Positions 15,796 to 53,875 of a DNA stretch of 64,000 nt are shown here, in pieces (within the stretch, counting starts at the first letter, position 1; each line of letters begins with the position of its first letter). The notes under the pieces are model-generated. The model was not told where the DNA came from. It saw only the letters and a list, made by a program, of their open reading frames with translations, and searched no databases. The stretch lies in NCBI GenBank assembly GCA_016699105.1, contig CP064960.1:328727-392726 (forward strand). Direction: 5' to 3'. The translations under genes and the position numbers were made by a program. The DNA is from a bacterium (lineage in GTDB: Bacteria > Patescibacteriota > Saccharimonadia > UBA4664).

Positions 15796-17159
15796 ATGAA
15801 TTTTGTTGAATCTATCTTTAAAGCGTATGACGTTCGAGGAATTTCTGGTGAAGAGTTAACTGACGAAGTAGCACGAGCCTACGGGCGGGCAGCAGCCGAT
15901 TGTCTACCACATAAGGGTCCAGTGATTGTTGGACGTGATATGAGAGTAGATTCAGAAAGTTTGGCAGCTGCAGTCATCGATGGTTTGACGCAGCAAGGCC
16001 GCGACGTCTGGGATATTGGTCTGGTTACGACCGATATGGTATATTTTGCGGCTGGGAAATTTGCCGAAACTGCCGGTGGAATCATGGTGACAGCCAGCCA
16101 CAACCCCGGAAAATACAACGGCATCAAAATGGTTGGTCATGGCTCGGTGCCCATGGGAGCCGCCAATGGCCTTTTGGATATCAAGCAAAAACTGGTTGAT
16201 GATGATTTCGCGCCACCAGCGCCAAACCGCGGCCAAGTGACCAAGAAAACTATCCATGACGATTGGGTTGATCAAATCCTGACGTTTATGAATCTAGACG
16301 CACTCAAGCCTTACCACATAGCTGTTGATGCCGGTAATGGTATGGGCGGGGCAATATTCCCTCATTTGGGGGCAAGATTGCCTTTAAGGTGGAGGAAATG
16401 TACTTTGAGCTTGACGGGACGTTTCCTAATCACATAGCCAATCCTCATCTCTATGAGACGCTGACCGATTTGTGTAATAAGGTGCGCCAGGGAAAACTTG
16501 ATTTTGGTTTAGCTTTTGACGGTGATGGCGACCGCGGCGGGATAGTGGATGAATCTGGCCGACCAGTGCCTGAGCACGTGATGGGAGCAATGCTCGTTGC
16601 CTATTTTTTGAAGAACCATCCTGGAGCCTCCATTGTGTATGATTTGCGGACGAGTCATATCGTCAAAGATACGATTGTGGCGCACGGCGGACAGGCATTG
16701 CGTTGCAAAGTTGGTAATGATGCGATCAAAACCATGATGCGCCAAAGTGGTGCGGTGCTGGGTATCGAAGCATCGGGTCACTATTACTTCCGAGACGATT
16801 ATTACAGTGACTCTGGCATTATTGCCGTCATGAGCGTGGTCAGTATTTTGGCTGAGTCGGGCAAACGATTGAGTGAACTAGTCAAAGAATATGAGTCGGT
16901 TTACGCGACAGCACATGAAACTAATCTTGAAGTCGATAATGCAGCTATGGTAACGACCAAGCTGGCCGAAACTTTTGCTGATGGACAGCAGGATAGACTA
17001 GATGGATTAACGGTGACATTTCCCGATTGGTGGTTTAACTTGCGGGCCAGTAATACGGAACCAGTGGTCAGGCTAAATATTGAAGCGAGTAATGAAGACT
17101 TACTCGCCGAAAAAAAGGCAGCAGTTGAGGCCGTGATAGGAGGTCGGGTACATGGCTAA
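15796..17159 (+). CDS. phosphomannomutase/phosphoglucomutase (alpha-D-phosphohexomutase), apparent frameshift near 16390-16437
   Basis: 'KAYDVRGI' and active-site 'TASHNPGKYNGIKM'. Two overlapping ORFs are collinear with the PMM/PGM family. Confidence 0.75.
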
Positions 17160-18704
17160 TCTACGTGATAGTCTCTCGTATGATCCCAAAGAAATGGGAT
17201 TTGGTACTTCGGGCTTGCGGGACCTGGTAACTGTTATGACTGATCTGGAATGTTATATCAATACGACAGGATTTCTCACTTTCTTGAGTGAATCTGGGCA
17301 AATTAAAGCTGATGATGTCGTGTATGTGGCAGGCGATCTCCGCGAAAGTACGCCGCGGATAATCCGCGCAGTGATGCAAGCCATCATCGATGCGGGATAC
17401 CGAGTTGAATATAACGGGTTTATTCCCACGCCGGCGCTGGCTTATCGGTCCTTTACCAGGGAGCTGGCATCATGGTTACGGGTAGCCATATTCCGGCAGA
17501 TCGTAATGGTATTAAGTTTAATAAACCAGATGGTGAAGTACTTAAACCAGATGAAGCTGGAATTCACGCAGCGGTATCGGTGGTGCGGGCGCGGCTTTAC
17601 TCGCAAGATATCCAACAATCTGCCTTCGACGGACAGGGTATGCTCAAACAAACACCCTCACTACCAGAGATAGTTAATGCCGGCCGTGCATATAATGAGC
17701 GTTATACTCATATTTTTGCAGACCAACCATTGGCTGGTAAAAAAGTAATCTTCTATCAACATTCAGCCGTGGGCCGAGATTTGTTGGTGGAATTACTGCG
17801 TGAACTCGGCGCCGATGTGGAACCAGTCGGAAGATCCGACCATTTCATCCCGATTGATAGCGAAAATGTAAAACCCGAGCACCGGGCTTATTTCAAGGAG
17901 TTAGCTGAGCAATACCCAGGATCTTTGGCGATTGTATCAACTGACGGTGATAGTGACCGCCCATTTGTGGTCGATGAAACCGGAGAATTTCACCGCGGGG
18001 ATATCTTGGGGGCGGTGGTGGCGCATTGGCTCAAAGCTGATTTCGCAGCTTATCCAATCAGTAACAGTGATGCGGCCGATATCTGGCTCGGACAGCAAGG
18101 AGTGCCAATTAATCATACGAAAATCGGGTCGCCCTTTGTGATCGCGGCAATGAACGAAGCGGAAGCTGCCGGAAAGACAAAAGTAGTCGGTTGGGAAGCT
18201 AATGGTGGCTTCTTGATTGGATCAGACTTGGATGTGCGAGGCCGGAAAATGACGGCGTTGGCGACACGTGACGCCATACTGCCGATTATCGTAGCTTTGG
18301 TAGCGGCTAGTGAGGCTGGTCAGACAATTTCGGAGCTATTTGCTGGTCTGCCTCAGCGTTATACACAGTCGGGATTGATCGACGATTTTCCAGCTGATGT
18401 ATACCGGCACATGGTCGAACGATTTGGGCAAGACACGCCGGAAGCCAAAGTACTGCTAGCAAGATTCTTTGGGTCCGACAATGGTTTTGGCGATATCACG
18501 AAGATCAATACGCTTGATGGTATTCGGATGTACTTTGAGAACGGTGATATTGCGCATTTACGCCAGTCGAGCAACGCGCCGCAACTTCGTATCTATACCG
18601 TGGCCAATACTCAGGACCGGGCGAATGAAATGGCCGCACAGGCATTAGCCGAACCAGATGGAATTTTTAGACAAATTCAGAAGCTGATTGAATCTGGCGG
18701 CTAA
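17152..18704 (+). CDS. second alpha-D-phosphohexomutase family paralog, apparent frameshift near 17465
   Basis: 'GTSGLRDLV' N-terminus, then 'GIMVTGSHIPADRNGIKF' active-site serine loop and an 'ISTDGDSDR' metal-binding loop. Confidence 0.7.
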
Positions 18705-19573: not shown

Positions 19574-21230
19574 ATGGCAAAGAAGATTTTTTATGATGAC
19601 GATGCCCGCGGCCGGGTACTAGCCGGGGCCAAAGAACTGTATGAGGCCGTGCGTGTAACCATGGGCCCGAAAGGCCGCAATGTGGTGGTATCCAAGAGCT
19701 ACGGTGGACGAGCGTGACTCACGATGGTGTGAGTGTGGCTAAGGCCGTGGAAATTGAAGCGCGCAATGACGAGACATTGGGTCGCGGTGTGGGTGCTGAA
19801 CTGATTAAATCGGCGGCTTCCAAGACTGCCGACAACGTCGGTGATGGTACGACGACCTCAACCGTATTGACCTACCACATCTTGGCTGAGGCCAACAAGT
19901 TGATTGCCGCCGGACACAACCCCATGGATCTCAAGAAAGGCTTAGATCAGGCCGCTGAGATAGTATTGGCTGGTGTACCTGGCATGACCGAGAAGATTGC
20001 TGGCAACCGGGCTAAGATTGCCCAGGTGGCTACTATTTCAGCTGGTGACGGTGAGATTGGTGATCTGATCGCCGAAGTTATTGAAGCTGTAGGTGAAGAC
20101 GGTACGGTGACTGTTGAGCAATCGCAAGGTTTGGCTCTAGAAAAGGAAGTTGTCGAAGGATTCAAGATCGATCGGGGATACGTTAGCCAATATATGGTGA
20201 CCGATCCTGCTCGCATGGAAGCTGTCTACGAGAAGCCCATGATCCTGGTAACCGACAAAAAAATTGGTGGTATCCAAGAGATTTTGCCACTGCTCGAGAA
20301 AATGGCTCAGGGTGGTAAGAAAGACCTGGTCATCGTAGCTGAAGATGTGGAAGGTGAAGCATTGGCCACTTTGGTACTCAACAAGCTCAAGGGTGTATTC
20401 AACACCTTGGCTATTAAGGCGCCGGCTTTTGGTGACCGTCGCAAAGCTATCTTGCAAGATATCGCCGAGCTGACGGGTGCAACGGTGATTACTTAAGAGC
20501 AAGGCTATACCTTCGAAAACGCTACCTTGGCCATGCTAGGTAGTGCCCGCAAGGTGATTGCTGGTAAAGACGACACCACTATTATTGAAGGTTATGGTGA
20601 CGCCAAGAGCGTGACAGCCCGGATTGCAGAAATTCGCGCCCAGATCGACAATGCAACCAGCGAGTATGACAAAGAAAACCTAGAGAAGCGCCTGAGCGCC
20701 TTGGCCGGCAAAGTAGCCGTCATCAAGGTCGGTGGTGCCACCGAGACTGAAATCAACGAAAGAAAGACCGCGTCGATGACGCTGTAGCCGCTACCAAGGC
20801 AGCTGTAGCTGAAGGTATCGTGCCTGGCGGCGGTGTGACTCTGGTAGACCTGAGCAAGAAGCTGACGGTTGAGCCAACCAAGATTGGTTCCAGCGCCGAA
20901 GCTGGTCACTTGGTGCTCAAGCGCGCCTTGGTGCAGCCTTTCCGTGAACTCATGCGCAACGCTGGTTTTAACCCGGACGAGAAGCTACCGGCCGTATTGG
21001 CTGCCAAGACCGGGGGACAGGGCTTTGACGTAACGGCTGCCGGTGCGTTGGTTGACCTCAAGGCCAAAGGAATTGTCGACCCAGCCAAGGTGGTACGTGA
21101 AGCCGTGCAGAACGCGGTATCGATCGCCGGTACTGCCATGACCATGGGTGCGCTCATTGTAGACATCCCCGAAGAGAAGAGTGCTGCCGGTGGTGGTATG
21201 CCGGGTGGTATGGGTGGTATGGACTATTAA
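19574..21230 (+). CDS. groEL: chaperonin GroEL, at least three apparent frameshifts
   Basis: Starts '[38 protein letters not shown]'. Four collinear ORF pieces end in a 'GGMGGMDY' tail. Confidence 0.85.
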
Positions 21231-21377
21231 GTAAGTAATATAGGCTGCGCGAACAGCCATGCTCGATTGCCTTGCGAAACTCACTGAAGTTCGAACATTC
21301 TCAGGCTTCTCCAGCATAACTGTTCGCTAGCCGTCGCTTACTGCCCACGTTCGTAAAAGTAAAAATGTGCAGGTATT

Positions 21378-21410
21378 AAAAGAGGCCCCTGGTGGAGTGG
21401 GCCTCTTTTA
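21378..21410 (+). terminator. groEL terminator
   Basis: AAAGAGGCCC-CTGGTGGAGT-GGGCCTCTTTTAT hairpin followed by T-run. Confidence 0.6.
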
Positions 21411-21444
21411 TAATTGATTATTTATGTTTATTGTGACATAAGTG

Positions 21445-21473
21445 TTGACAATTGTAACTACTTATGCTATTAT
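21445..21473 (+). promoter_or_regulatory. consensus sigma70-type promoter for the high-GC module
   Basis: TTGACA (21445-21450), 17-nt spacer, TATTAT (21468-21473), in an AT-rich stretch ~105 nt upstream of the ATG at 21578. Confidence 0.55.
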
Positions 21474-21577
21474 GTCTGACATGCTCGTTTGGTGCTCATG
21501 AAGATTCGTCTTCCTCTGATCATTAAACCGGCGTACCCCGACATCACGCAAGTTCACACACGAACAGGAGTCCGACC

Positions 21578-22711
21578 ATGACTGCTCAGACCACCACCCA
21601 GCCCACCAACACGTCGACCGACGCCGAGGTGGCGCAGGAGGTCCAGGAGCCCACGGCGGCTCCCAAGGACTTCTTCGCTCCGCCGCTGGCGGCTCACGAG
21701 GGCCTCGCTGCTCTGGTCGACCAGCTCAACAACGTCGGCGCCGAGATGGCGCCCGAGGCGACCCAGAAGCCCGACCCGCACGCGCAGCTCAAGCTGCGTC
21801 GTGAGACGTACTGGGCCAAGCTCCGTGAGGAGCAGGGCCTGGCCGACGATGTCATGCCCGACTTCGATGCAGTGATGTTCCAGCCCGCCAAGGGCCGGGA
21901 ATCCATCCACCTGGTCGAGAAGGACATCGACGCGTTGAAGACCATGAAGCTGACCGGCAACATCGCCGGGCGGCTGAAGTGGCTGCTCGACCGCCTGCTG
22001 GTGGACGAGAGGGTCGGCAAGCCGGCCGGACCCAAGTCCGGTGCGACCAAGGCTCCGGCCAAGGCCACCAAGTTGCAGTACCCCGTCGTGCCCCCCATCT
22101 CTTCCGAGTGGGACAAGGAGCGCCGGGACTTCTACCGACAGGTGGTCCGCGCGTGGGACTGGAAGACCTGCGAGTCGTTCCAGGCCAACTTCGCCCGCCA
22201 GAAGGGTCTCCCCCAGGAGATCTGGTTCATGCTCAATTTCAAGAAGTGTGGCCAGTTCATCGAGGCGGTTCTGCGCCAGGCTCTGGTTCTCGCGCTCGTC
22301 GAGCGCGAGCGGCAGGCCGGCAAGGAGGACGAGTACCTCGCCCTTGCCGCCGGCATCGAGGGGGCTCGCGCCTCCGAGGCTGCCAAGCTGGCGGAATTGG
22401 CCGACTGCGGCCGGGTCGTCGACCCGACCAAGACGGTCAACCCTGTCCACCGAGTCGAGGTCACCGCTGACCGCACTCCGGAGGAGATCGAGCAGGAGCG
22501 CATTGCCTTCTGGTCGAGCGTGCCGCGCGAGCTCCGCGAGGAGTTCAAGGCACGCGCTGCCAAGGACTTCGCCGCCGCCATGCTGGTGGTGCGCAAGCCC
22601 AAGAAGGTGTACACCCCCGAGCGGATCCAGGAGATGGTCTCGGCCATCTCCGTCGCGGAGCGTCTGCTCCGCGTGATCCAGCGTGAGCACGCTCAGGCCG
22701 ACCAGGCCTAA
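21578..22711 (+). CDS. hypothetical protein encoded in ~68% GC DNA (foreign-type composition)
   Basis: 377 aa with an AGGAG RBS 8 nt upstream. Codon usage has a high-GC third position, unlike its neighbours. No recognisable domain. Confidence 0.6.
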   Translation: MTAQTTTQPTNTSTDAEVAQEVQEPTAAPKDFFAPPLAAHEGLAALVDQLNNVGAEMAPEATQKPDPHAQLKLRRETYWAKLREEQGLADDVMPDFDAVMFQPAKGRESIHLVEKDIDALKTMKLTGNIAGRLKWLLDRLLVDERVGKPAGPKSGATKAPAKATKLQYPVVPPISSEWDKERRDFYRQVVRAWDWKTCESFQANFARQKGLPQEIWFMLNFKKCGQFIEAVLRQALVLALVERERQAGKEDEYLALAAGIEGARASEAAKLAELADCGRVVDPTKTVNPVHRVEVTADRTPEEIEQERIAFWSSVPRELREEFKARAAKDFAAAMLVVRKPKKVYTPERIQEMVSAISVAERLLRVIQREHAQADQA

Positions 22712-22728
22712 GCGTCTCACCGCACTGC

Positions 22729-22778
22729 GGGGAGGAGTGGAAGGCTTACATGCCCCCACTCCTCCCCAACCCGATTTT
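22729..22778 (+). terminator. Rho-independent terminator
   Basis: GGGGAGGAGTGG...CCACTCCTCCCC stem then AACCCGATTTT. Confidence 0.55.
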
Positions 22779-22897
22779 AGAACTTGCGTGATGTCTCTCA
22801 CCTGAATTTTCAAAGGAAACTTTGAAGATTGAGGCGAGATTGGCAGATCCGATCTCGAGGTTCATCGAAAAATCCATCCCCGTCAGAGGAGTAACGC

Positions 22898-23185
22898 ATG
22901 ACCACGTATGTGACCGAGCGGCTCGTCAGTATCGAAGAGCGGCTCGGACGAGCCACCCGAGTGATCGGGCGACCGCAGGTCGTGGCGACGCGCGAGCAGG
23001 TGCTCGCGGATCGTGCCGTCTACATGGCGGGGCGTCCGTTGTCCAATGTCTGGTTGGCCGCCGGCCGCCAGCAGATCAGGCCGTCGGAAGCGCAGGAACA
23101 CCTGCTCACCGCTTCCGCCGGCCAGCTCGACCTCGACCAGATCGGGGAGCTGTACAAGCTCCTGGGCAAGGTGGTCCGCGGCTGA
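22898..23185 (+). CDS. small hypothetical protein encoded in high-GC DNA
   Basis: 95 aa with GAGGAG RBS. Same composition as 21578-22711. Confidence 0.5.
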   Translation: MTTYVTERLVSIEERLGRATRVIGRPQVVATREQVLADRAVYMAGRPLSNVWLAAGRQQIRPSEAQEHLLTASAGQLDLDQIGELYKLLGKVVRG

Positions 23186-23210
23186 CAGAGCCGCTGATTC
23201 ACCAACACCC

Positions 23211-23252
23211 CCGGGGAGGGGCGGTTTCGACCGCCTCTCCCCATCTTCTTTT
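23211..23252 (+). terminator. Rho-independent terminator
   Basis: GGGGAGGGGCGG-TTTCGA-CCGCCTCTCCCC then ATCTTCTTTTAT. Confidence 0.65.
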
Positions 23253-23275
23253 ATACATGTGGTACGCTTAGTACT

Positions 23276-24109
23276 ATGAAAACGCTTGCGGTTAATACTA
23301 CGAGATTGGCTGAAGAAACGTGGCGGCAGCGAGTCGATCAGACTCCAGCCCAGCCGGATGAATTTGCGCGTTTGGCGTTGGCAATCGTTGAATCAATTGA
23401 GCAACATCGTGATGAGCATGGTTTAAACGAGGCTATCAGCCAGGCTAAAGAAGATTTAGTTGATGCGTTGACCAATCAGGAACTCAAACATTTTGGCGAA
23501 GTGGTCGTGGGCGCACGACGCCAGGCCAAGTTGCAGGAATGGTTGGATGCCGACCGTGATAAATTGCACAGTGGACAGCTTGATCATCAAGAGCGGGTGA
23601 GTGTCGGCCATCAGTATGAGGCTTTGCGGCATGAAGCGTGCGAGTACAATCATCATTTGCGCAGTGTAATCGAACTTTCGGGACATCATTTTGACCGTGA
23701 GGACTTAACGAATTGGCTCGTGGACGTCAGCCAGGGCCGGCATGAATGGGCGGTAGCCGAGATCCAGGGTGCGGTCAGTGAAGTGGCGCTTCACGCAGCC
23801 CTACAAGGTGTGCCCGAACTTGCAGGTGTGCGCTATGGCAGTGTGGCCGAAGATCTAGCCGGTTATGATTTTATCGCTGAATTGAATGGTAAATTACTGA
23901 CAGTTGATGCTAAAACCGGCAAATATTGGCCGTTGGATGAACGCAAGCACGGGCACCGGCACCTGGAAGTGAGTGTGCCCCACGAGGCTGTTAATGGTTT
24001 TTGGATCAAACGACCGGCGATGGAACGACTACGCACCGAAATCCGGCAGGCCTTGCAGATACCGCATCATGTCGAACACACTTGGCGATTGACGCCAGTA
24101 CAAGCATAA
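23276..24109 (+). CDS. hypothetical protein (possible C-terminal PD-(D/E)xK-like motif)
   Basis: 277 aa at host-like GC. 'GYDFIAELNGKLLTVDAKTGKY' could be a D...DxK nuclease core, but this is weak evidence. Confidence 0.45.
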   Translation: MKTLAVNTTRLAEETWRQRVDQTPAQPDEFARLALAIVESIEQHRDEHGLNEAISQAKEDLVDALTNQELKHFGEVVVGARRQAKLQEWLDADRDKLHSGQLDHQERVSVGHQYEALRHEACEYNHHLRSVIELSGHHFDREDLTNWLVDVSQGRHEWAVAEIQGAVSEVALHAALQGVPELAGVRYGSVAEDLAGYDFIAELNGKLLTVDAKTGKYWPLDERKHGHRHLEVSVPHEAVNGFWIKRPAMERLRTEIRQALQIPHHVEHTWRLTPVQA

Positions 24110-34622: not shown

Positions 34623-34712
34623 GGAGAGGTCGCATAGTGGCCGAGTGCGCTCGCTTGGAAAGCGGGTATGGGGGCAACTCCATCGAGGGTTCGAATCCCT
34701 CCCTCTCCGCCA
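34623..34712 (+). tRNA. tRNA-Ser (anticodon GGA)
   Basis: Acceptor GGAGAGG/CCTCTCC, discriminator G, genomically encoded CCA, anticodon loop TTGGAAA, long variable arm (class II), T-arm GAGGGTTCGAATCCCTC. Confidence 0.85.
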
Positions 34713-42164: not shown

Positions 42165-44492
42165 ATGAGCGAACAGGTAGGGGTAGAGCAGGGGGTTGGC
42201 CTAGCGGGGGATAGTTCCGTTTGGGCAAATTCTATGCGTGAGCTTGATCAGCCTGAGACGGCACCAAATGAGCCGAGCTCCCGTGAGCAGGCGCAGCCAG
42301 TGGTTGACCAGTTTAAGCAACTTGAGCACGATTTTTGTGAGGCGTCCAAAATCATTCGTGCTGAGGAGCTGTTGGAGGGCCACTATGAAGATAGCGACGA
42401 ACCATCGGTAGAGTTAATCGCACATCGACGTGAGGCATTGATGGCAGAAATGGGACGCTTGCGCCAAGCATGCCAGGCTGATCATCCCTTAATTGCTTTA
42501 CGGGCAGAATACCTTACAGTTTGCCTATATGGTCGTATCGATCACAGCTATACCGATGATCGCTTACTCGATGATGATCTACGGCAAGAATTTGATTCGT
42601 ATCGTGACAAGTACGGCAATGGCTATTTTGATGATCAGCCAGAGTCGCTGGATGAGGACGAGAGCCAGAGTTTCAATCTACCCTTTGTTGACGTTTCGGG
42701 TAAAGTAGTCCTACCAGAGCAAGTATACGAGATGGCCAAGAAAGATCGCCCAAGTTTCGTAGGCGTTAAAGCGTTTCAGGTAGCCCGAGATGGAGTAGTA
42801 TTCCTGGCCGAATCGTTGCCGAGAGGTGGCTATGATGCCGTGAACGTGGTGGCGGAGGCCAGGTTAGATGCGCAGCAATTAGACCAAGCCGAAACGGTAA
42901 AACTGCAGCCTTCGCAGTTAGCGCGTTTTGAGTCTGTAGTGCAGCATGGTCGTCTCGATGTTTTGCGCGAATTACTCCAATGGGGGCCAGAGTTCTTGGA
43001 GAAGGGACACATACCATGGCAAAGCCAAGATCGACAAACTGCTACAGAACGGCGTCGTTACTGGGAAGAGCGGATACCAACATTAGATAGTGCTGAGTGG
43101 CGGCTCGTGTATGAGTCAACTGCGGATAGACAATATGATGAGGACAAACCTGTGTCCGTGGATGATTTCCTGCGTGAGGCATCGCTCGGCGAATATCTGA
43201 CTGAGTTAGGGATTGATTCGGGCAAGGCAAACCAGATGCAGGATCAAATGACAACGTATTTGCGCCAGGTACATCAACAACAAAACAAAGAGTTGGCGCC
43301 GGTGTTTGAGGTACATGCCCTTGATACTTCCAATGATACAACGATGCTCTGGCGTGATTTCTTTTTAGAGCCGGGAATGCAAGAAGCGTTGAGTAAACAG
43401 TTTGAACTCGATATGACCTCGATGTCTTTGGCTGCGCAACGACAGCTCGTGGCTTATCTGGGGCGCAGCACAATTGTGGAATTTAACCGGCTTAAACAGA
43501 TAGTTTCTGGGCGGGATGACGAATCAAAGCTTAGCTTGTTTGAATCGTTTTTAGCTTTAGAGCATGGTGACGAGTTTGGTGATAGCCTACTGACGATTGT
43601 CGAGCAATTACCAGAGGAAACATCGCAAGAAATCCTGAGCGAATTGGCAAATATTCGCCAATTGGCACATGAAAACGGTCAAGAATACCACGATTTTGAC
43701 CCTGAGTTTGCACAGCAATTTGAGCAAGCTTGGGTGTCGCGAACAACGCAGGTATTGTTGAATGCCCAAGAACTAGCCGAGGGGCGCACCCCGAGCGTTA
43801 CTAGGTATGATGGAACAGTCAAAACTATTAGCTCGATCGGTGAGGTAACCTGGGGATTACGATTGCTTAGGGACCGGCTGAGCCGGGAGCTGAGTCATTT
43901 ACGCGATGGTGGTGGCGTGATTGAGCGCCAAGACAGTACAACTACTACTATTCGAATGCCTGATGGTGGGTTGGAGCAATTGCGGCCGTATGCCGCTGAG
44001 CAAGATCAGCACGATGAAGAGCATCATTTTGATGATGAGGCACGCGCTAACTCATTGGCCAGTACTGATAGCTGGCCATTTACAGAATCTCGGAATGACC
44101 CCGCCAGAGTTCGGGCGTTAAGTATTCGGATTGATCGTGAGGGTATCTGGAGAAATGAGGCAGGCGAACCGCTGCGGGATCGTCAAAACAAACTCGTAAA
44201 CTTGCCGACAGGCGAGTATGGCTGGGTCTCATTAGATATTGGTGGATTGGTGGGTGAACCGGATGATCCCAATGTGCGTATTGGGGCGTTGATGGCAGCA
44301 GGGGCTGCTATATTTGCCAATCGTCGGGGTCAGGTTTCTCATCAGCATCATGTGAGAGAGGTGTTTGCTGAGCGCTTTGGTCGGAAAGAGGAGTTTGCGC
44401 GCTTGGTTCGCTTTCGGCAGGAGAGGTTGCTGCGACAGATATCGAAGACTGTTTCGCGCCCCGCTTCATCAGAGCAAAAACTTGCCTCATAG
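42165..44492 (+). CDS. large acidic hypothetical protein (775 aa)
   Basis: No recognisable motifs; strongly acidic. Confidence 0.5.
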   Translation: MSEQVGVEQGVGLAGDSSVWANSMRELDQPETAPNEPSSREQAQPVVDQFKQLEHDFCEASKIIRAEELLEGHYEDSDEPSVELIAHRREALMAEMGRLRQACQADHPLIALRAEYLTVCLYGRIDHSYTDDRLLDDDLRQEFDSYRDKYGNGYFDDQPESLDEDESQSFNLPFVDVSGKVVLPEQVYEMAKKDRPSFVGVKAFQVARDGVVFLAESLPRGGYDAVNVVAEARLDAQQLDQAETVKLQPSQLARFESVVQHGRLDVLRELLQWGPEFLEKGHIPWQSQDRQTATERRRYWEERIPTLDSAEWRLVYESTADRQYDEDKPVSVDDFLREASLGEYLTELGIDSGKANQMQDQMTTYLRQVHQQQNKELAPVFEVHALDTSNDTTMLWRDFFLEPGMQEALSKQFELDMTSMSLAAQRQLVAYLGRSTIVEFNRLKQIVSGRDDESKLSLFESFLALEHGDEFGDSLLTIVEQLPEETSQEILSELANIRQLAHENGQEYHDFDPEFAQQFEQAWVSRTTQVLLNAQELAEGRTPSVTRYDGTVKTISSIGEVTWGLRLLRDRLSRELSHLRDGGGVIERQDSTTTTIRMPDGGLEQLRPYAAEQDQHDEEHHFDDEARANSLASTDSWPFTESRNDPARVRALSIRIDREGIWRNEAGEPLRDRQNKLVNLPTGEYGWVSLDIGGLVGEPDDPNVRIGALMAAGAAIFANRRGQVSHQHHVREVFAERFGRKEEFARLVRFRQERLLRQISKTVSRPASSEQKLAS

Positions 44493-45194: not shown

Positions 45195-46055
45195 AGGTGT
45201 AAGTTAGCACAAGCGGGATAAATTGTCAATGAGAAATTGACAGAAAATGGTTTGTTTTTATATCTGTTAGAATGTAATACGCGAGTGACTAATTGACATA
45301 TTAAAGTCCTTGTGGTAAAGTGTGTTCATTCGATGAGGCAGACATAAAATACCTACTCTCGAAAGTCAAGCTAACAATTACATACGTACACATTTGGTAA
45401 GACACGTTCTAGGGTCAGAAGCTCGAAAACGGTCCAAATATAGGTTGAGCCCTTGGGTGTTCCCTGTATCTGGATCGCGAGCGTGTCTTTCTATCGTTTT
45501 AAGGGCAGTTTTAGGACCTTTAAAACCACTAATTGAGATGATCTAGAACTCGGTTAGTACCCGCGAAGGTGCATCTAGTAACGGGTAACAGACGATTAAT
45601 GGACTATTCCTTGGTCCGTCGCACCAAGTACGCGCTTTGTAGCGAGATATCCGCGTGATGATCAGAAGGCATCATGAATGCAGGTTGGCGAAACTATTTG
45701 TTCGCCCGTCACGCGCTATCTCTCTGGAAAGAGAGAAATTTAAAAATCGATCACAAATTTTTGAGCGGAAGCTGCCTCTCGTAATCAATAGTCCCACGCC
45801 AACATGAATACCTGCGCGATCGGATGTACTAGAAGGAATACGGGAGACAGGTTCCACTGAAGGAACCAGTATTTGGGCGAAAGTCCAAAAAAGTACCTTT
45901 TGAAAAGTTGTTTGAATATGGTCGCTGGTCGGCGTTGCGGAAACGTATACGATGGTGTTTTCCCAAGGGGTATCGATGAGAATCGACGCTCGCTGGGGAG
46001 ACGCCAACGGGGCGGATCCAACAATGGGGCAGATGTGCTCCGGAAGGAGGTGGTC

Positions 46056-46463
46056 TTCGTGATCACCCAGACGACCGAGACCACGACCCCGACCGCCCCG
46101 GTGACAGGGCGGCTGGTTCCGCGGCCGCCCGCGGGCCGCAAGGGGGTCGTCAACCCCCGGACCCACGCGGCCACCCGCGAGGCGGCGCTGCTGGACCAAC
46201 TGGCGGCCGAGCTGACCGCCCACCAGGCGGAGGCCGCCGAGGCGGCGACCCGGCAGGGTTTGATCCTGCCACCCGTCGGCCGGGTCATTGACCCGGCCAC
46301 CCTCCGCGAGGAGGGTCTGCCCGAGATCGTGGGGCAGACCCGGACGGTGCAGTCGGCACGGCCTGCGACGCCGCGGCGTCAACCGATGATGCCCCGTAAC
46401 GGGGGGCGTCGCTACAATGGCCCGCTTACGCGGGCCGAGCTGGCGGCAAGGGTCGCCAGCTGA
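46056..46463 (+). CDS. Thr/Pro/Arg-rich hypothetical protein in the high-GC island
   Basis: GGAAGGAGG then GTG start. ~135 aa at ~70% GC. Confidence 0.4.
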   Translation, partial: FVITQTTETTTPTAPVTGRLVPRPPAGRKGVVNPRTHAATREAALLDQLAAELTAHQAEAAEAATRQGLILPPVGRVIDPATLREEGLPEIVGQTRTVQSARPATPRRQPMMPRNGGRRYNGPLTRAELAARVAS

Positions 46464-46764
46464 CAACCAGCCGCAGGTGAGGCAGCTGCGGGATATAAAT
46501 TCCTGCCTCAACGTTCGAGCCGGGTTGACGGCTATGAGCGGGCCAGCGCGAAAGCGCCCGACCGCATCACCATGGGTTGTTTTGACCCAGATCGTTTGAA
46601 CATTTTGTTCACAAGTTCGTTTGTGCCCGCCGAGAGCTTTTCTCGGTAGTACCACAAGGAAATCGTTTCGCGACTTTTTTCGAAAATCGCTGAACGATGT
46701 GGTGCGCCACACTTGTACATTTTTGTACGAATCGGGGAGGTCGGCCAACCGGCCGCTACCTCCC

Positions 46765-46819
46765 CCTGACTTCCGTGGATGCGTATCTGCGTTGATGAGT
46801 CCGAAAGGACGAAAAGTCA
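46765..46819 (+). ncRNA. type-III hammerhead ribozyme motif, copy 1 (C3U variant)
   Basis: Helix III CUGACU/AGUCAG, cleavage triplet UUC, helix I hairpin CGUGGAU-GCGU-AUCUGCG, core 'UUGAUGA' (U at position 3 instead of C), helix II GUCC-GAAA-GGAC, then GAAA. Confidence 0.5.
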
Positions 46820-46934
46820 GACCAGTACTTTGATTAGTGATAGATGTTCCGGACTGGATATTTGTTATTGAGATACACCGATGACAGGTATCCGGTCCGG
46901 GAAGCGCCCAGACCACAAATCCCCTGGAGGGGTC

Positions 46935-47174
46935 ATGCTTTGGAAGACCACGTATCAGGAATCACCGTATGAGAGTACGGGACAGTATGGAGTGTATGTT
47001 TGGCACCGGTTTTTCGGCCGGTGCCAAACAGGATGGCAGGTGGTGCCAATCGCCTGCCATCCTGATGGCGAAAAAAGAATGGATGCCTTTTTGGCTTTCA
47101 TTCGCCAACCGCGGCGGTTCGCCGCGGTGGAAAGGAGGGCAAAAGAGTTGGGCTTCAGACTTGACAAGGTCTAA
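46935..47174 (+). CDS. small hypothetical protein (79 aa) after conserved leader
   Basis: 'CCCCUGGAGGGGUCAUGC' leader/RBS conserved downstream of all three hammerheads. Confidence 0.35.
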   Translation: MLWKTTYQESPYESTGQYGVYVWHRFFGRCQTGWQVVPIACHPDGEKRMDAFLAFIRQPRRFAAVERRAKELGFRLDKV

Positions 47175-47224: not shown

Positions 47225-47420
47225 TTCAAATCCTCGGAAGTACCAAAGGAACTCAGGTTTAGAACCCGAGTGGTGCGAGACGGGTAACCGGGAGCAACCC
47301 ATAATATGCTCCCCACTCAACCCGAGTGTTTCATATCTTCTGCGTTCCTACCGCCGATTACCGCGTAATCGGCGGGTGAGAGGGGTGATGAAACACTCAG
47401 GCTGGGTGAAAGCTCAGAAA
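47225..47420 (+). repeat. repeat B copy 1 (diverged)
   Basis: Shares 'GCTCCCCAC..AACCCGAG...TTCA.A.CTTCTGC.TTC', 'GTGAGAGGGGT' and 'TCAGGCTGGG' with copies at ~50072 and ~52217. Contains an 11-bp perfect hairpin CCGCCGATTAC-CGC-GTAATCGGCGG (47352-47376). Confidence 0.5.
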
Positions 47421-48648: not shown

Positions 48649-48733
48649 GCACTGCCTTCCAACCCCAACTGCACCGGCAGTCATCCGGGACAAGGCGCTC
48701 AAAAGGAAATTGGCCAACAGTGCCAATGCGCGC

Positions 48734-48890
48734 CAGGGAGCGACTCCTCAAGACGCTGAACCACGGTTAATACCCGTTGGTCACTGTCATCGCGACAACA
48801 ACAGGTTTGCCGGTTTCCTCCGCAAGGAAATAACCGGTGCAACTCGGCGGATGTGTATCCGCCCTGACGAGTCCGAAAGGACGAAAGTTG
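48734..48890 (+). ncRNA. ~157-nt structured repeat A, copy 2, ending in a canonical type-III hammerhead ribozyme (48839-48890)
   Basis: Helix III GCAAC/GUUG(G), cleavage after CUC (C48845), helix I GGCGGAU-GUGU-AUCCGCC, core CUGACGA, helix II GUCC-GAAA-GGAC, GAAA. Upstream ~100 nt is near-identical to copy 3. Confidence 0.65.
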
Positions 48891-49795: not shown

Positions 49796-50229
49796 TGCTG
49801 TTTCTTGGCACGGTGATGGCTGTGCGGGCTGTCTGGGCTCTATGTAGTGGAAGCTACAAGGGTAAGCCAGCCCGGCGGGGATCGCCAATATGGTATCCAT
49901 TGTGGTTTGCGCTTGCCGCAAGCGTGAGCGTTGCCGTGATGGGGCCATATTTATCGGCTCCGAATGATTCGGGCCCACCGTCAGACGGCTTCTGGCAAAA
50001 CCCGCCCTCTGATCGCGGATCGAAAAGATCAGAACTGCCACATAAGGACTTCGCGAACGCGGAGGTGGCGCAAAACGTATTTACGGTAAAGGGGAGTCGC
50101 CTAAGAGCTCCCCACCCAACCCGAGGGCTTCACACCTTCTGCATTCCGACAACTCATTTGAGCAATCGGAGGGTGGTCGGAGTGGTGGAGCTCTCAGGCT
50201 GGGCGCCAATCAGGTTCCCAGTAGTTTGA
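49796..50229 (+). CDS. small hydrophobic hypothetical protein (extent uncertain)
   Basis: GAAAGGAGGTGG RBS. The N-terminal two-TM segment resembles the 48457 ORF. The 3' part may be out of frame. Confidence 0.3.
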
Positions 50230-51322: not shown

Positions 51323-51370
51323 GAATTCTGGGACAAAACGCGCATAAGGACCAGCTCGTGAGCTGGGCGT

Positions 51371-51528
51371 CAGGGGAGCGACTCCTCAAGACGTTGAACC
51401 ACGGTTAATACCCGTTGGTCACTGTCATCGTGACAACCAAAGGTTTGCCGGTTTCCGCCGCAAGGAAATAACCGGTGCAACTCGGCGGATGTGTATCCGC
51501 CCTGACGAGTCCGAAAGGACGAAAGTTG
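51371..51528 (+). ncRNA. ~158-nt structured repeat A, copy 3, ending in a canonical type-III hammerhead ribozyme (51477-51528)
   Basis: Hammerhead core identical to copy 2. 8 substitutions over ~157 nt between the copies. Confidence 0.65.
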
Positions 51529-51577
51529 TCAGCCAGTTGGTCCGGGAAACGCCCAGACCACGAGGCCCTGGAGGGTC

Positions 51578-51811
51578 ATGCTGCAGCTGGTTTCGATTCA
51601 TTGGGGTCCGCTCGACGAGCCCCACGAGGACGTCATCATTCACGATGGAGTCCCGGCGCGGCGACTTGCCGTGCCGAACTACTACGATGAAGGGCAGACG
51701 GTCGAGGAGTCGATCTTCTGCCCGAGCACAAGGTGGGCAGCAAGTTACATCGCTGCCCTCGTGGCGCGGGGCTATCCCGGCCGGAGCCACATGGCACGGA
51801 TCTTGAGATGA
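51578..51811 (+). CDS. small hypothetical protein (77 aa) after conserved leader
   Basis: The 'CCCUGGAGGGUCAUGC' leader is the only support. Confidence 0.35.
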   Translation: MLQLVSIHWGPLDEPHEDVIIHDGVPARRLAVPNYYDEGQTVEESIFCPSTRWAASYIAALVARGYPGRSHMARILR

Positions 51812-52216: not shown

Positions 52217-52360
52217 TGGGTGGCGCAAAATCGTTCTACGGTAAAGGGAGTCGCCTAAGAGCTCCCACCTAACCCGAAGGCTTCATACCTTCTGCATTCT
52301 GACTGCTTTATGAAATATCAGCGAGCAGTTGGAGTGATGGAGCCTTCAGGTTTGGTTGAC
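52217..52360 (+). repeat. repeat B copy 3 at right edge of the high-GC island
   Basis: Near-identical to copy 2 over ~85 nt. GC drops to host level immediately downstream. Confidence 0.55.
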
Positions 52361-52435: not shown

Positions 52436-53875
52436 TTGCCAGACGGCGCCGAGGAGCCTACCATAGAACTAGACGTTTGCGGGGGTATTTTGGCCGATTT
52501 GACCGAAAAATGTGGCGTTTTTGGCGCTGTTACTGAGCATAGTTATACCGCTCGGGTGACGTATTATGGGCTGTGGGCACTGCAGCACCGCGGCCAAGAG
52601 GGCAGTGGTATCGCTAGTTGGGATGGCCAGCGCATGCACTCTCGTGTGGGCGCGGGACTGGTGGCGCACGTGTATGATCCAGGAGATCTCGAGCGGCTTG
52701 ATGGGTGCATAGCTATTGGCCACAATCGATATTCGACATCTGGTGCCGATGGCGGGGCACATGCTCAGCCGGTAATTGACCGAGATTTAGATCTGGCTTT
52801 CGCACATAATGGTAATTTGCCTTCTACTAAGGCGCTGGAAGCGTTTTTGCGCAAACACCATATCAATCCACGCCCATTGAATGATTCCGAAATGATGACA
52901 CGGGCAATTGGTGTGTATTTGCGTGACGGGATGAGTCTTGAAGATGCAGTTGTGGCGGCATGGCCGTTGTTTACTGGCGCTTTTTCGTGCGTGGTCATGC
53001 AAGAAGGTCATTTGGTGGCATTTCGAGATGAGTGCGGGATTCGGCCATTGGCTCTGGGAAAACTTGAGGATGGTTACTGTGTATCGAGTGAATCGTGTGC
53101 CTTTGATACAGTGGGCGCCGCTTTTTGCGCGAAGTGAAGCCTGGAGAACTTTGTCAGTCTGACGGCTGAAAAGTGACGGCACGCCAAGTGGTGACGGCTC
53201 GACCCAAATTGGATGTGTTTGAGTTGGTCTATTTTGCCCGCCCTGATAGTTTGATCGCTGGCCGCAAAGTTAATGAAGTCCGGCGGGAAATGGGCAGACA
53301 GTTGGCTCGAGAATTTCCAGTTGTCGCTGATGTTGTCATACCAGTGCCCGATTCGGGGATTCCGATGGCCCTAGGATACAGTGAGCAGAGTGGGGTGCGA
53401 TTTGATCATGGTTTTATCAAAAACCGCTATATTCACCGGACGTTTATTAAAGCCGACACAAGTAATGCGGAGCGGGATGTGCGAGTAAAGCTCAATCCCG
53501 TGCCGGAAGTAGTCATGGGTAAAAGCGTGGTGGTAATCGATGATTCCATAGTGCGAGGAACCACAACCGGGCAAATCGTTGGCATGCTGTATGGAGCCGG
53601 TGCTCAGTGTTCATGTTCTGGTGAGTTCGCCGCCGGTTTTGTACCCAGACTTTTATGGAATCAACACGCCGAGCCAGACAGAATTGATAGCCGCCAATCG
53701 CAGCGTTGAAGAAATTCGGGAGCATATCGGTGCGGATAGCTTGGGCTACCTGTCGGTGACTGGTATGGTAAAAGCAACCGGATTGGCACGTCAAAAGTTG
53801 AACCTGTCGTGTTTACTGGTGAATATCCGATTGATATCGGTGAGCGGGCGCTCACTATTCAAAAAGTTTTACTAG
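52436..53875 (+). CDS. purF: amidophosphoribosyltransferase PurF, at least three apparent frameshifts
   Basis: 'CGVFGAV' N-terminal nucleophile region, 'IGHNRYSTSG', PRTase motif 'VVVIDDSIVRGTT'. Four collinear ORF pieces; start uncertain. Confidence 0.8.

Follow-up and report, generated by a model that had tools for sequence, protein, structure and literature searches.

Why does DNA with the coding style of a high-GC genome lie directly behind the chaperonin gene groEL in a chromosome of about 51% GC? The question is raised by two genes for orphan proteins of 377 and 95 amino acids (aa), located in the 64,000-nucleotide stretch of contig CP064960.1 (assembly GCA_016699105.1, positions 328,727 to 392,726) that we analyzed as a whole and refer to as the window. 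Its backbone is a Saccharimonadales (Saccharibacteria/TM7) chromosome, of a lineage so far seen in metagenome assemblies only. Comparison with related loci suggests that these genes currently occupy a conserved and strongly promoted slot for cassettes, just downstream of groESL. The cargo would consist of self-contained foreign-style units, each composed of a Shine-Dalgarno (SD) site, an open reading frame (ORF) with a GC content at third codon positions (GC3) of ~0.85-0.9 and a GC-rich hairpin. We give about even chances to the complete reading, in which high-GC accessory cassettes are exchanged and put to use in host interaction, with the doubt lying mostly on function.

Investigating the composition of the locus, we found 65.1% GC in the segment 21550-23230, compared with 51.3% in the window minus this module and a second high-GC island at 45.9-52.4 kb. 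The first-pass annotation of this DNA had put the contrast at 68% against 48%; the high-GC segment it described is real, but the contrast had been overstated. A sliding GC profile jumps from ~45-50% to 65-69% at ~21.5-23.2 kb, and this post-groEL module is the richest 1.7-kb GC stretch of the whole window. It resolves into two blocks of 66.7% GC (21530-22770 and 22871-23245) with a 43% GC spacer between them (22771-22870). Both ORFs proposed at first pass were confirmed (Table 1), with a GC content at codon positions 1/2/3 of 0.69/0.43/0.89 for the 377-aa gene and 0.72/0.46/0.84 for the 95-aa gene. This is the pattern of real genes in the style of a ~68-70% GC genome, compared with a genome-wide GC3 near 0.5. 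A 419-aa ORF on the minus strand that overlaps the 377-aa gene was dismissed for its off-frame codon-position GC pattern, and the other overlapping alternative ORFs are likewise off-frame. Codon usage in the cassettes is strongly C/G-ending (AAG 100%, GAG 91%, CTC at least as frequent as CTG, GTC more frequent than GTG, TCC/TCG), and all cassette genes have a strong SD site 6-8 nt upstream, which their backbone neighbours do not have. Such a codon pattern together with U-less GC hairpins is typical of Actinobacteria, although this is a general resemblance only.

A break of this kind in an assembled contig might be artefactual, arising either from a chimera of actinobacterial reads in a TM7 contig or from spurious ORFs in non-coding high-GC DNA, and the window assembly does contain evident indel errors. 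Its groEL (19575-21230) contains an in-frame TAA at 20494 and two frameshifts, one near 19700 and one near 20770, and a PGM/GlmM-like mutase gene (15796-18704) is split. In other contigs these genes are intact, namely groEL in L005 and L011 (552 aa in L011) and the mutase in L011 (452 aa). A purF-like gene is also split in the window (52436-53709). The split housekeeping genes likely reflect long-read indel or base errors of the window assembly rather than pseudogenes, and since groEL is intact in other contigs, its defects point to indel errors and not to a mis-join. An independent contig of 1,960 bp matches window positions 21460-23419 gap-free and covers both junctions, and ~18 contigs retrieved from NCBI, ENA and Logan, which come from different samples, place both genes identically. 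The mis-join that the first-pass annotation had named as a danger is thus excluded. Furthermore, strong three-base periodicity is found in the annotated frames only, and all alleles keep open frames through in-frame indels. An artefact, already refuted by the independent contigs, therefore has negligible probability.

The segment had been described as a separate module inserted after groEL, and the related loci contradict this. In contig L005, from a sister species whose copy of the downstream 277-aa backbone gene is 84% identical, the same position has the same groEL terminator, the same promoter (TTGACAAAAGTAACTACTTATGCTAATAT) and a partly conserved distal leader, followed by a different ORF of 342 aa with a GC3 of 0.88. 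This ORF is succeeded by a GGGGAGG...CCTCCCC hairpin and then by a 3' element consisting of TGTCTCTCACCTGA, a small palindrome and TTGAGGCGAGA. The encoded L005 protein is related to the 377-aa family over the N-terminal ~145 residues only (31% identity, E 6e-16), which indicates that the slot-1 proteins combine a conserved N-domain with an exchangeable remainder. A second haplotype of the same species-level population as the window (haplotype B, contigs L002 and L021), with a backbone 96% identical, carries a 368-aa relative of the 377-aa protein (57% identity). In haplotype B this is followed by a second unit made of its own promoter copy, a high-GC ORF of 154 aa, a hairpin and a second copy of the 3' element. 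Two genes of host composition (416 aa; 57 aa, on the minus strand) then precede the 277-aa gene, and neither had a Pfam match (L002 2039-3517; L021).

Based on these alignments, the locus can be divided into a slot 1, which begins with the promoter and leader and ends with the hairpin and 3' element, and a slot 2, which lies between the 3' element and the 277-aa gene. In the compared cassette loci, slot 1 always holds one fast-evolving protein family with a shared N-domain, and the contents of slot 2 are unrelated between strains, the 95-aa orphan being the occupant in the window. Promoter, distal leader and 3' element are thus conserved around different genes in L005, L002 and L021. A conserved platform with different high-GC genes means that turnover is confined to the contents of the slot, the slot itself being old. 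The first-pass annotation had taken close homologs at the same locus in related genomes as a sign that the segment is ancestral, and this applies to the slot but not to what it contains. In the distant Saccharimonadia contigs L004 and L006 synteny is kept and no high-GC cassette is present. Two side observations concern these loci. In slot 2 of L005 (8869-9936) lies a convergent 355-aa gene of host composition with a phosphoribosyltransferase-like motif, as judged by eye. At the same post-groEL position in L006 (9060-9880), a TTGACA-N17-TATTTT promoter is followed by ~700 bp without a clear ORF and then by a terminator, and this stretch may represent a non-coding RNA.

The platform is of host composition and comprises the groEL terminator, a sigma-70 promoter of the extended -10 type, a portion of the leader and the 3' element (Table 1); the proximal part of the leader, the spacer and the 3' element stay at 43-51% GC. 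The groEL terminator is kept in L005 and L011. A sub-threshold Rfam match to Thr_leader on the opposite strand over this terminator was taken as chance, and Rfam gave no family in the module. The predicted slot promoter is the best sigma-70-like site within 19-25 kb, and at the sequence level it bears out the near-consensus promoter that had been noted in host-type DNA ahead of the module. Its spacer block ACTTATGCTA is conserved, and the pattern TTGACAANNGTAANNACTTATGCTA, present in the window as one exact copy, is restricted to cassette starts, in L002 (second cassette), L005, L007, L011, L012, L016 and L017. An inverted repeat, CATAAGT / ACTTATG (21437-21443 and 21460-21466), brackets the -35 hexamer and spacer of the promoter, its right arm falling inside the conserved ACTTATGCTA block, and could act as an operator. 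The rise in GC starts at ~21530, inside the 5' leader, which folds no better than shuffled sequence (z -0.9). In the spacer ahead of the 95-aa gene, a promoter scan of the plus strand found no promoter of its own.

The GGGGAGG...CCTCCCC outer stem of hairpin 1 recurs, with a different and still-paired interior, after the 154-aa gene of L002 and the 342-aa gene of L005, and among the fetched loci this hairpin motif is found at cassette positions only, bar one stray match in L006. A strong intrinsic terminator had been reported after each gene. This holds for the second, whose stem-loop (23213-23242) is followed by ATCTTCTTTT and passes the terminator scan, but not for hairpin 1, which the scan did not call. 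The second terminator is invariant in 17 sequences and marks the right end of the high-GC DNA; backbone homology to L002 and L005 restarts at 23254 (ACATGTGGTACGC...). The 3' element is single-copy in the window, with 0 copies expected by chance, and occurs once in each of 15 fetched contigs spanning the position and twice in L002, where the copies flank the 154-aa cassette. It is also conserved in L005, where a compensatory change in the stem (T.G to A-T) preserves pairing, and its homology stops at the identical nucleotide in four contexts. Promoter block and 3' element are confined to cassette positions among the fetched loci, and neither had a match in IMG/VR or JGI metagenome contigs, a search with a relaxed pattern included.

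Table 1 Features of the post-groEL cassette slot and its flanks (window positions).
Feature	Position	Strand	Characteristics
groEL intrinsic terminator, left platform edge	21377..21409	+	hairpin -22.6 kcal/mol, z -4.1, then T-run
Predicted slot promoter TTGACA-N17-TATTAT with TG extension (extended -10)	21445..21473	+	11/12 consensus match
5' leader, ~100 nt	21474..21577	+	distal part CCCYGACATCAYGCAAGTTCA shared between species; SD AGGAG 21566-21570
Slot-1 gene, 377-aa orphan (QQR52916.1)	21578..22711	+	GC3 0.89; conserved N-domain of ~145 aa
GC-rich hairpin 1, outer stem GGGGAGG...CCTCCCC	22729..22767	+	strong fold, without adjacent T-run
~50-bp 3' element TGTCTCTCACCTGAATTTTCAAAGGAAACTTTGAAGATTGAGGCGAGA with small AT-rich palindrome, right edge of slot 1	22792..22839	+	
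Slot-2 gene, 95-aa orphan (QQR52917.1)	22898..23185	+	GC3 0.84; SD GAGGAG 22886-22891
Canonical intrinsic terminator	23213..23252	+	13-bp stem, 10 GC pairs, loop TTCG, T-rich tail
277-aa backbone gene (QQR52918.1), context only	23276..24109	+	invariant D...DAK motif; outside module

Variation between strain contigs demonstrates that the slot-1 protein evolves fast and that the 95-aa cassette of slot 2 has swept recently. Across 15 contigs the 95-aa gene shows zero synonymous differences and one non-synonymous single-nucleotide polymorphism, while roughly 12 differences would be expected in its ~70 synonymous sites at the backbone rate. In the 377-aa gene, the proportion of synonymous differences (pS) is 0-0.06, and the ratio of non-synonymous to synonymous proportions (pN/pS) is 0.3-0.9. 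In-frame indels produce alleles of 377, 378 and 379 aa, and slot-1 alleles overall range from 329 to 379 aa, all with open frames. Nucleotide diversity (pi) is unevenly spread over the 377-aa gene, with hot blocks at 21500-21700 and 22100-22300 (pi ~0.07-0.08) in alternation with cold ones, and the stretch 23100-23300 is invariant in 17 sequences. Slot-1 alleles are block mosaics: L003, for example, matches the window at ~92% identity for 868 bp and then switches to a 237-bp stretch that is 100% identical to L002, and allele differences come in blocks and not at adenine-specific sites. The module stays near-identical where the flanks of strains differ (1 mismatch versus 11 in 144 bp). Moreover, the 95-aa gene is constant while the 377-aa alleles vary, and P0003 has a C-terminal region related to that of the window protein (~85% DNA identity), yet is followed by the unrelated 154-aa gene with its own promoter. 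Together, the strain variation and the mosaics indicate that the cargo is, wholly or in part, of more recent origin than its carrier strains and recombines freely.

Both proteins are orphans. The 377-aa protein, encoded on a contig of 1.32 Mb, is labelled "hypothetical protein IPG36_02270 [bacterium]" by NCBI, and for both proteins the absence of recognisable domains seen at first pass was reproduced with Pfam, PHROGs, PADLOC and NCBIfam, all of which were blank; a sequence search of the PDB was also without match. Among 5.8 billion protein clusters, the 377-aa family is represented by three clusters at 90% identity only and the 95-aa protein by its own cluster only. A HMMER profile of the 377-aa family returned no new relative from 1.84 billion representatives, with one chance-level match (P0004, E 8e-4), and no relative was present in 185,579 GTDB species representatives. 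The module had no match in INPHARED (50,697 phage records, searched with DNA and by tblastn), PLSDB plasmids or IMG/VR. An Esx/WXG100 pair, considered in view of a published report (PMC13622651), was rejected, as there is no Pfam match and no WxG turn or YxxxD/E motif in either sequence.

Saccharibacteria show natural competence, with linear DNA being integrated by homologous recombination, and they live on Actinobacteria, with a type IV secretion system (T4SS) needed for epibiotic growth (PMC10633639). In activated sludge, Saccharimonadales co-occur with Actinobacteriota (PMC12592800). In the reading we favour, the cargo would come from, or be repeatedly re-supplied by, a high-GC gene pool, most plausibly actinobacterial hosts or their mobile elements. 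Cassettes or segments of them would then pass between strains by natural transformation and recombination via the conserved flanks, which would account for the mosaic alleles as well as for the recent 95-aa sweep. The epibiont would express the proteins from the platform promoter in a host-interaction role, as effector, anti-defence protein or similar, under arms-race selection. Here we infer the origin of the cargo, the mechanism of exchange and, above all, the function, so that the slot genes are candidate host-interaction genes and nothing more yet. The architecture of the slot, the turnover of its contents and their population pattern are observations, made directly in the compared contigs.

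Several results weigh against the exchange of host-derived cassettes for host interaction. Homologs of the cassette proteins were found in none of the actinobacteria, phages, plasmids and viral contigs searched, and with no homolog outside the family the donor is hypothetical. Neither protein has a signal peptide, a hydrophobic or transmembrane segment, or a recognised secretion or toxin domain. AlphaFold2 gave a predicted local distance difference test (pLDDT) score of 36.9 for the 377-aa protein (3-sequence alignment; an all-helical model with long low-confidence linkers) and of 46.5 for the 95-aa protein (single sequence; four helices), and both models are too poor to be used for fold inference. 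A pN/pS approaching 0.9 would also fit a dispensable gene under relaxed constraint. In addition, slot-1 genes have a GC3 of ~0.88 in two species with N-domains only 31% identical; such persistence is more than a one-off transfer followed by amelioration can account for and requires either repeated import from unsampled sources or maintenance in place. Finally, the sharp end of the 3' element in four contexts hints at a site-specific step, as do the constant outer arms of otherwise different hairpins, and no enzyme for such a step was found at the locus.

The explanation given at first pass was a single recent insertion of one mobile two-gene module, complete with promoter and terminators, whose donor had also supplied the 45.9-52.4 kb island. 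The composition boundaries are indeed sharp, the module is near-identical between strains with differing flanks and the pS of the 95-aa gene is 0, but promoter, leader and 3' element surround a different gene in another species, and the two genes sit in separate slots that turn over independently. No flanking direct repeats, tRNA or integrase are present at the locus. The proposed shared donor is not supported either: the second island has much weaker coding periodicity (GC3 0.58-0.77), internal repeats and no sequence in common with the module. L005 and L002 already refute it for the most part, and we regard a single insertion as quite unlikely. Alternatively, the pair might be a conflict or addiction cassette serving competition or phage defence instead of host manipulation; the 377-aa protein would then be a polymorphic toxin or defence effector, variable in its C-terminal part, and the 95-aa protein its immunity protein or antitoxin. 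The constant N-domain with its swappable remainder, the small downstream gene, the mosaic alleles, the variable hotspot and the signs of a recent sweep would all suit such a system. Nevertheless, toxin, immunity and defence models of PADLOC, Pfam and NCBIfam matched neither protein, variation in the small gene is not coupled to that in the large one (P0003 being followed by the unrelated 154-aa gene), and the 95-aa gene is invariant next to variable 377-aa alleles, which makes this alternative unlikely.

It might also be that no foreign donor is involved and that these are native Saccharimonadales genes of an endemic family, whose high GC3 is kept in place, for instance by GC-biased gene conversion at a hotspot of recombination or by selection on the nucleic acid. 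This would agree with the failure of every search to find homologs outside the lineage, with the slot and N-domain common to two species at a GC3 of ~0.88 in both, and with the clear recombination at the locus. However, spacer, proximal leader and 3' element recombine too and remain at 43-51% GC, although biased conversion should not spare them, and backbone genes have neither the SD sites nor the U-less GC hairpins of the high-GC units. To our knowledge, recombination-associated shifts are far smaller than the step from a genome-wide GC3 of ~0.5 to 0.89, and we assign an endemic origin the same low probability as a single insertion. There is also a slim chance that the locus is an integron-like capture and expression site without an integron integrase, with a fixed strong promoter, GGGGAGG/CCTCCCC hairpins and a sharply bounded ~50-bp site, that would acquire, shuffle and express genes bearing the high-GC coding signature of actinobacterial hosts. 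In a bolder version, which draws on the analogy with T-DNA, host-type codons, SD sites and U-less hairpins might be kept for delivery by the T4SS and expression inside the host.

The favoured reading, an exchanged set of accessory cassettes in an old slot, shares features with several known systems and coincides with none, and we file the locus as a horizontally exchanged accessory-gene hotspot with unusual, unexplained features. The likeness to integrons lies in the upstream platform promoter, in exchangeable cargo of mixed origin and in the imperfect palindrome that closes each cargo unit, in which the 7-bp outer arms are conserved and the interior varies but stays paired. As to whether the platform promoter serves promoterless cassettes, the picture is mixed, since the 95-aa gene has no detectable promoter of its own and the 154-aa cassette of L002 brings its own promoter copy. 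In contrast to integrons, no integrase is found adjacent or among the scanned ORFs of the window, the arms are GGGGAGG/CCTCCCC on near-perfect stems with no RYYYAAC/GTTRRRY attC core readable at the cassette ends, and slot 1 always holds one protein family. Phage morons similarly combine their own promoter and terminating hairpin with deviant composition and accessory cargo of no assigned function; the present locus, however, is not in a prophage, having groESL, sugar-phosphate enzymes and an ABC permease as neighbours, and its promoter is part of the chromosomal platform, not of the cargo. A constant N-terminal part with an exchangeable remainder, block-mosaic alleles and a small downstream ORF are also seen in polymorphic toxin loci, but domains for toxicity, trafficking or immunity were not found here, and the small gene does not change along with the C-terminal region of the large one. 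Host-derived effectors of parasites, such as the eukaryote-like effectors of Legionella, which PMC12592800 uses as an analogy, resemble the cargo in their presumed-host coding style and in being accessory, strain-variable and fast-evolving, whereas no host homolog, secretion signal or effector domain was found in this case. Unlike a classical genomic island, the module has no tRNA or tmRNA site, flanking direct repeats or integrase, and unlike a diversity-generating retroelement, it has no reverse transcriptase in the scanned ORFs, no second copy of the module in the window and differences that come in blocks.

The genomic context of the slot is that of a housekeeping region. Neighbours of the module are a GlmM/PGM-like mutase, a helix-turn-helix protein, groES/groEL, the 277-aa gene and a 189-aa gene, PGI/PMI and a MacB-like permease, and the order groES, groEL, a gap, the 277-aa gene and, further on, PGI/PMI and the MacB-like permease is syntenic in Saccharimonadia. 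Twenty further ORFs of the window are either housekeeping genes (TsaD, FemAB, Mur ligase, DnaG, PolA, DNA polymerase III delta, ABC transporters and others) or Pfam-blank, and no recombinase, transposase, integrase or phage gene was found among these ORFs and the module neighbours. The sole tRNA of the window (34623-34712) is 11 kb from the module, and no direct repeats flanking 21.4-23.3 kb were found. The suggestion that the downstream genes are functional partners of the module is not supported: the 277-aa gene belongs to the backbone, lies 3' of groEL in L004, L005 and L006 and hence also in distant cassette-free Saccharimonadia, and has evolved under strong purifying selection, with a pS of 0.12-0.26 relative to the window and a pN/pS of ~0.03 (0.02-0.06). 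In haplotype B, moreover, two other genes stand between the cassettes and the 277-aa gene. Its orthologs were found in metagenome-assembled genomes of Saccharimonadia only, and the protein has the invariant motifs D198...D211-A-K213 and KHGH and no Pfam or PDB sequence match. It represents a conserved family without a characterised member, and its fold may be of the PD-(D/E)xK type.

The second high-GC island contains repeated intergenic modules at 46777-46939, 48727-48890 and 51364-51582 with variable segments between them, and further repeats at 47308-47348, 50064-50150 and 52219-52303. Its ORFs had no Pfam match and its sequence no Rfam match. Ribosomal RNA was rejected as an explanation of the island on the latter ground, and a diversity-generating retroelement because the differences between repeats are not adenine-specific. 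The first ORF of the island (46059-46463, 134 aa) has a cassette-like style, with a GC3 of 0.87 and the SD site GGAGG, and a GGGGAGG...CCTCCCC hairpin lies ~270 nt downstream of it (46734-46765). Membership of this ORF in the slot family was not supported (E 0.05-0.1, no detectable homology). Upstream of the island, ~700 bp (45200-45900) are AT-rich (39-48% GC) and ORF-poor and contain several TTGACA-like motifs, and a 775-aa ORF of host composition without a Pfam match is located at 42165-44492.

In conclusion, this analysis corrects three earlier over-readings of the locus, namely that a single insertion took place, that its donor also gave rise to the second island and that the genes downstream are its partners. 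Host recognition and exploitation by ultra-small epibiotic Patescibacteria are poorly understood, and very few candidate effector genes are available. In this respect, the post-groEL slot offers a concrete and genetically tractable candidate, consisting of a conserved, strongly promoted slot whose fast-evolving cargo has host-like codons, is recombined blockwise and sweeps through natural populations. Should the cargo prove endemic, it would have to be explained separately how a GC3 near 0.9 persists at a genomic GC of 51%. If it is host-derived, the locus would clearly exemplify gene flow from host to epibiont that has been put to use, and could aid the prediction of host range from metagenomes.

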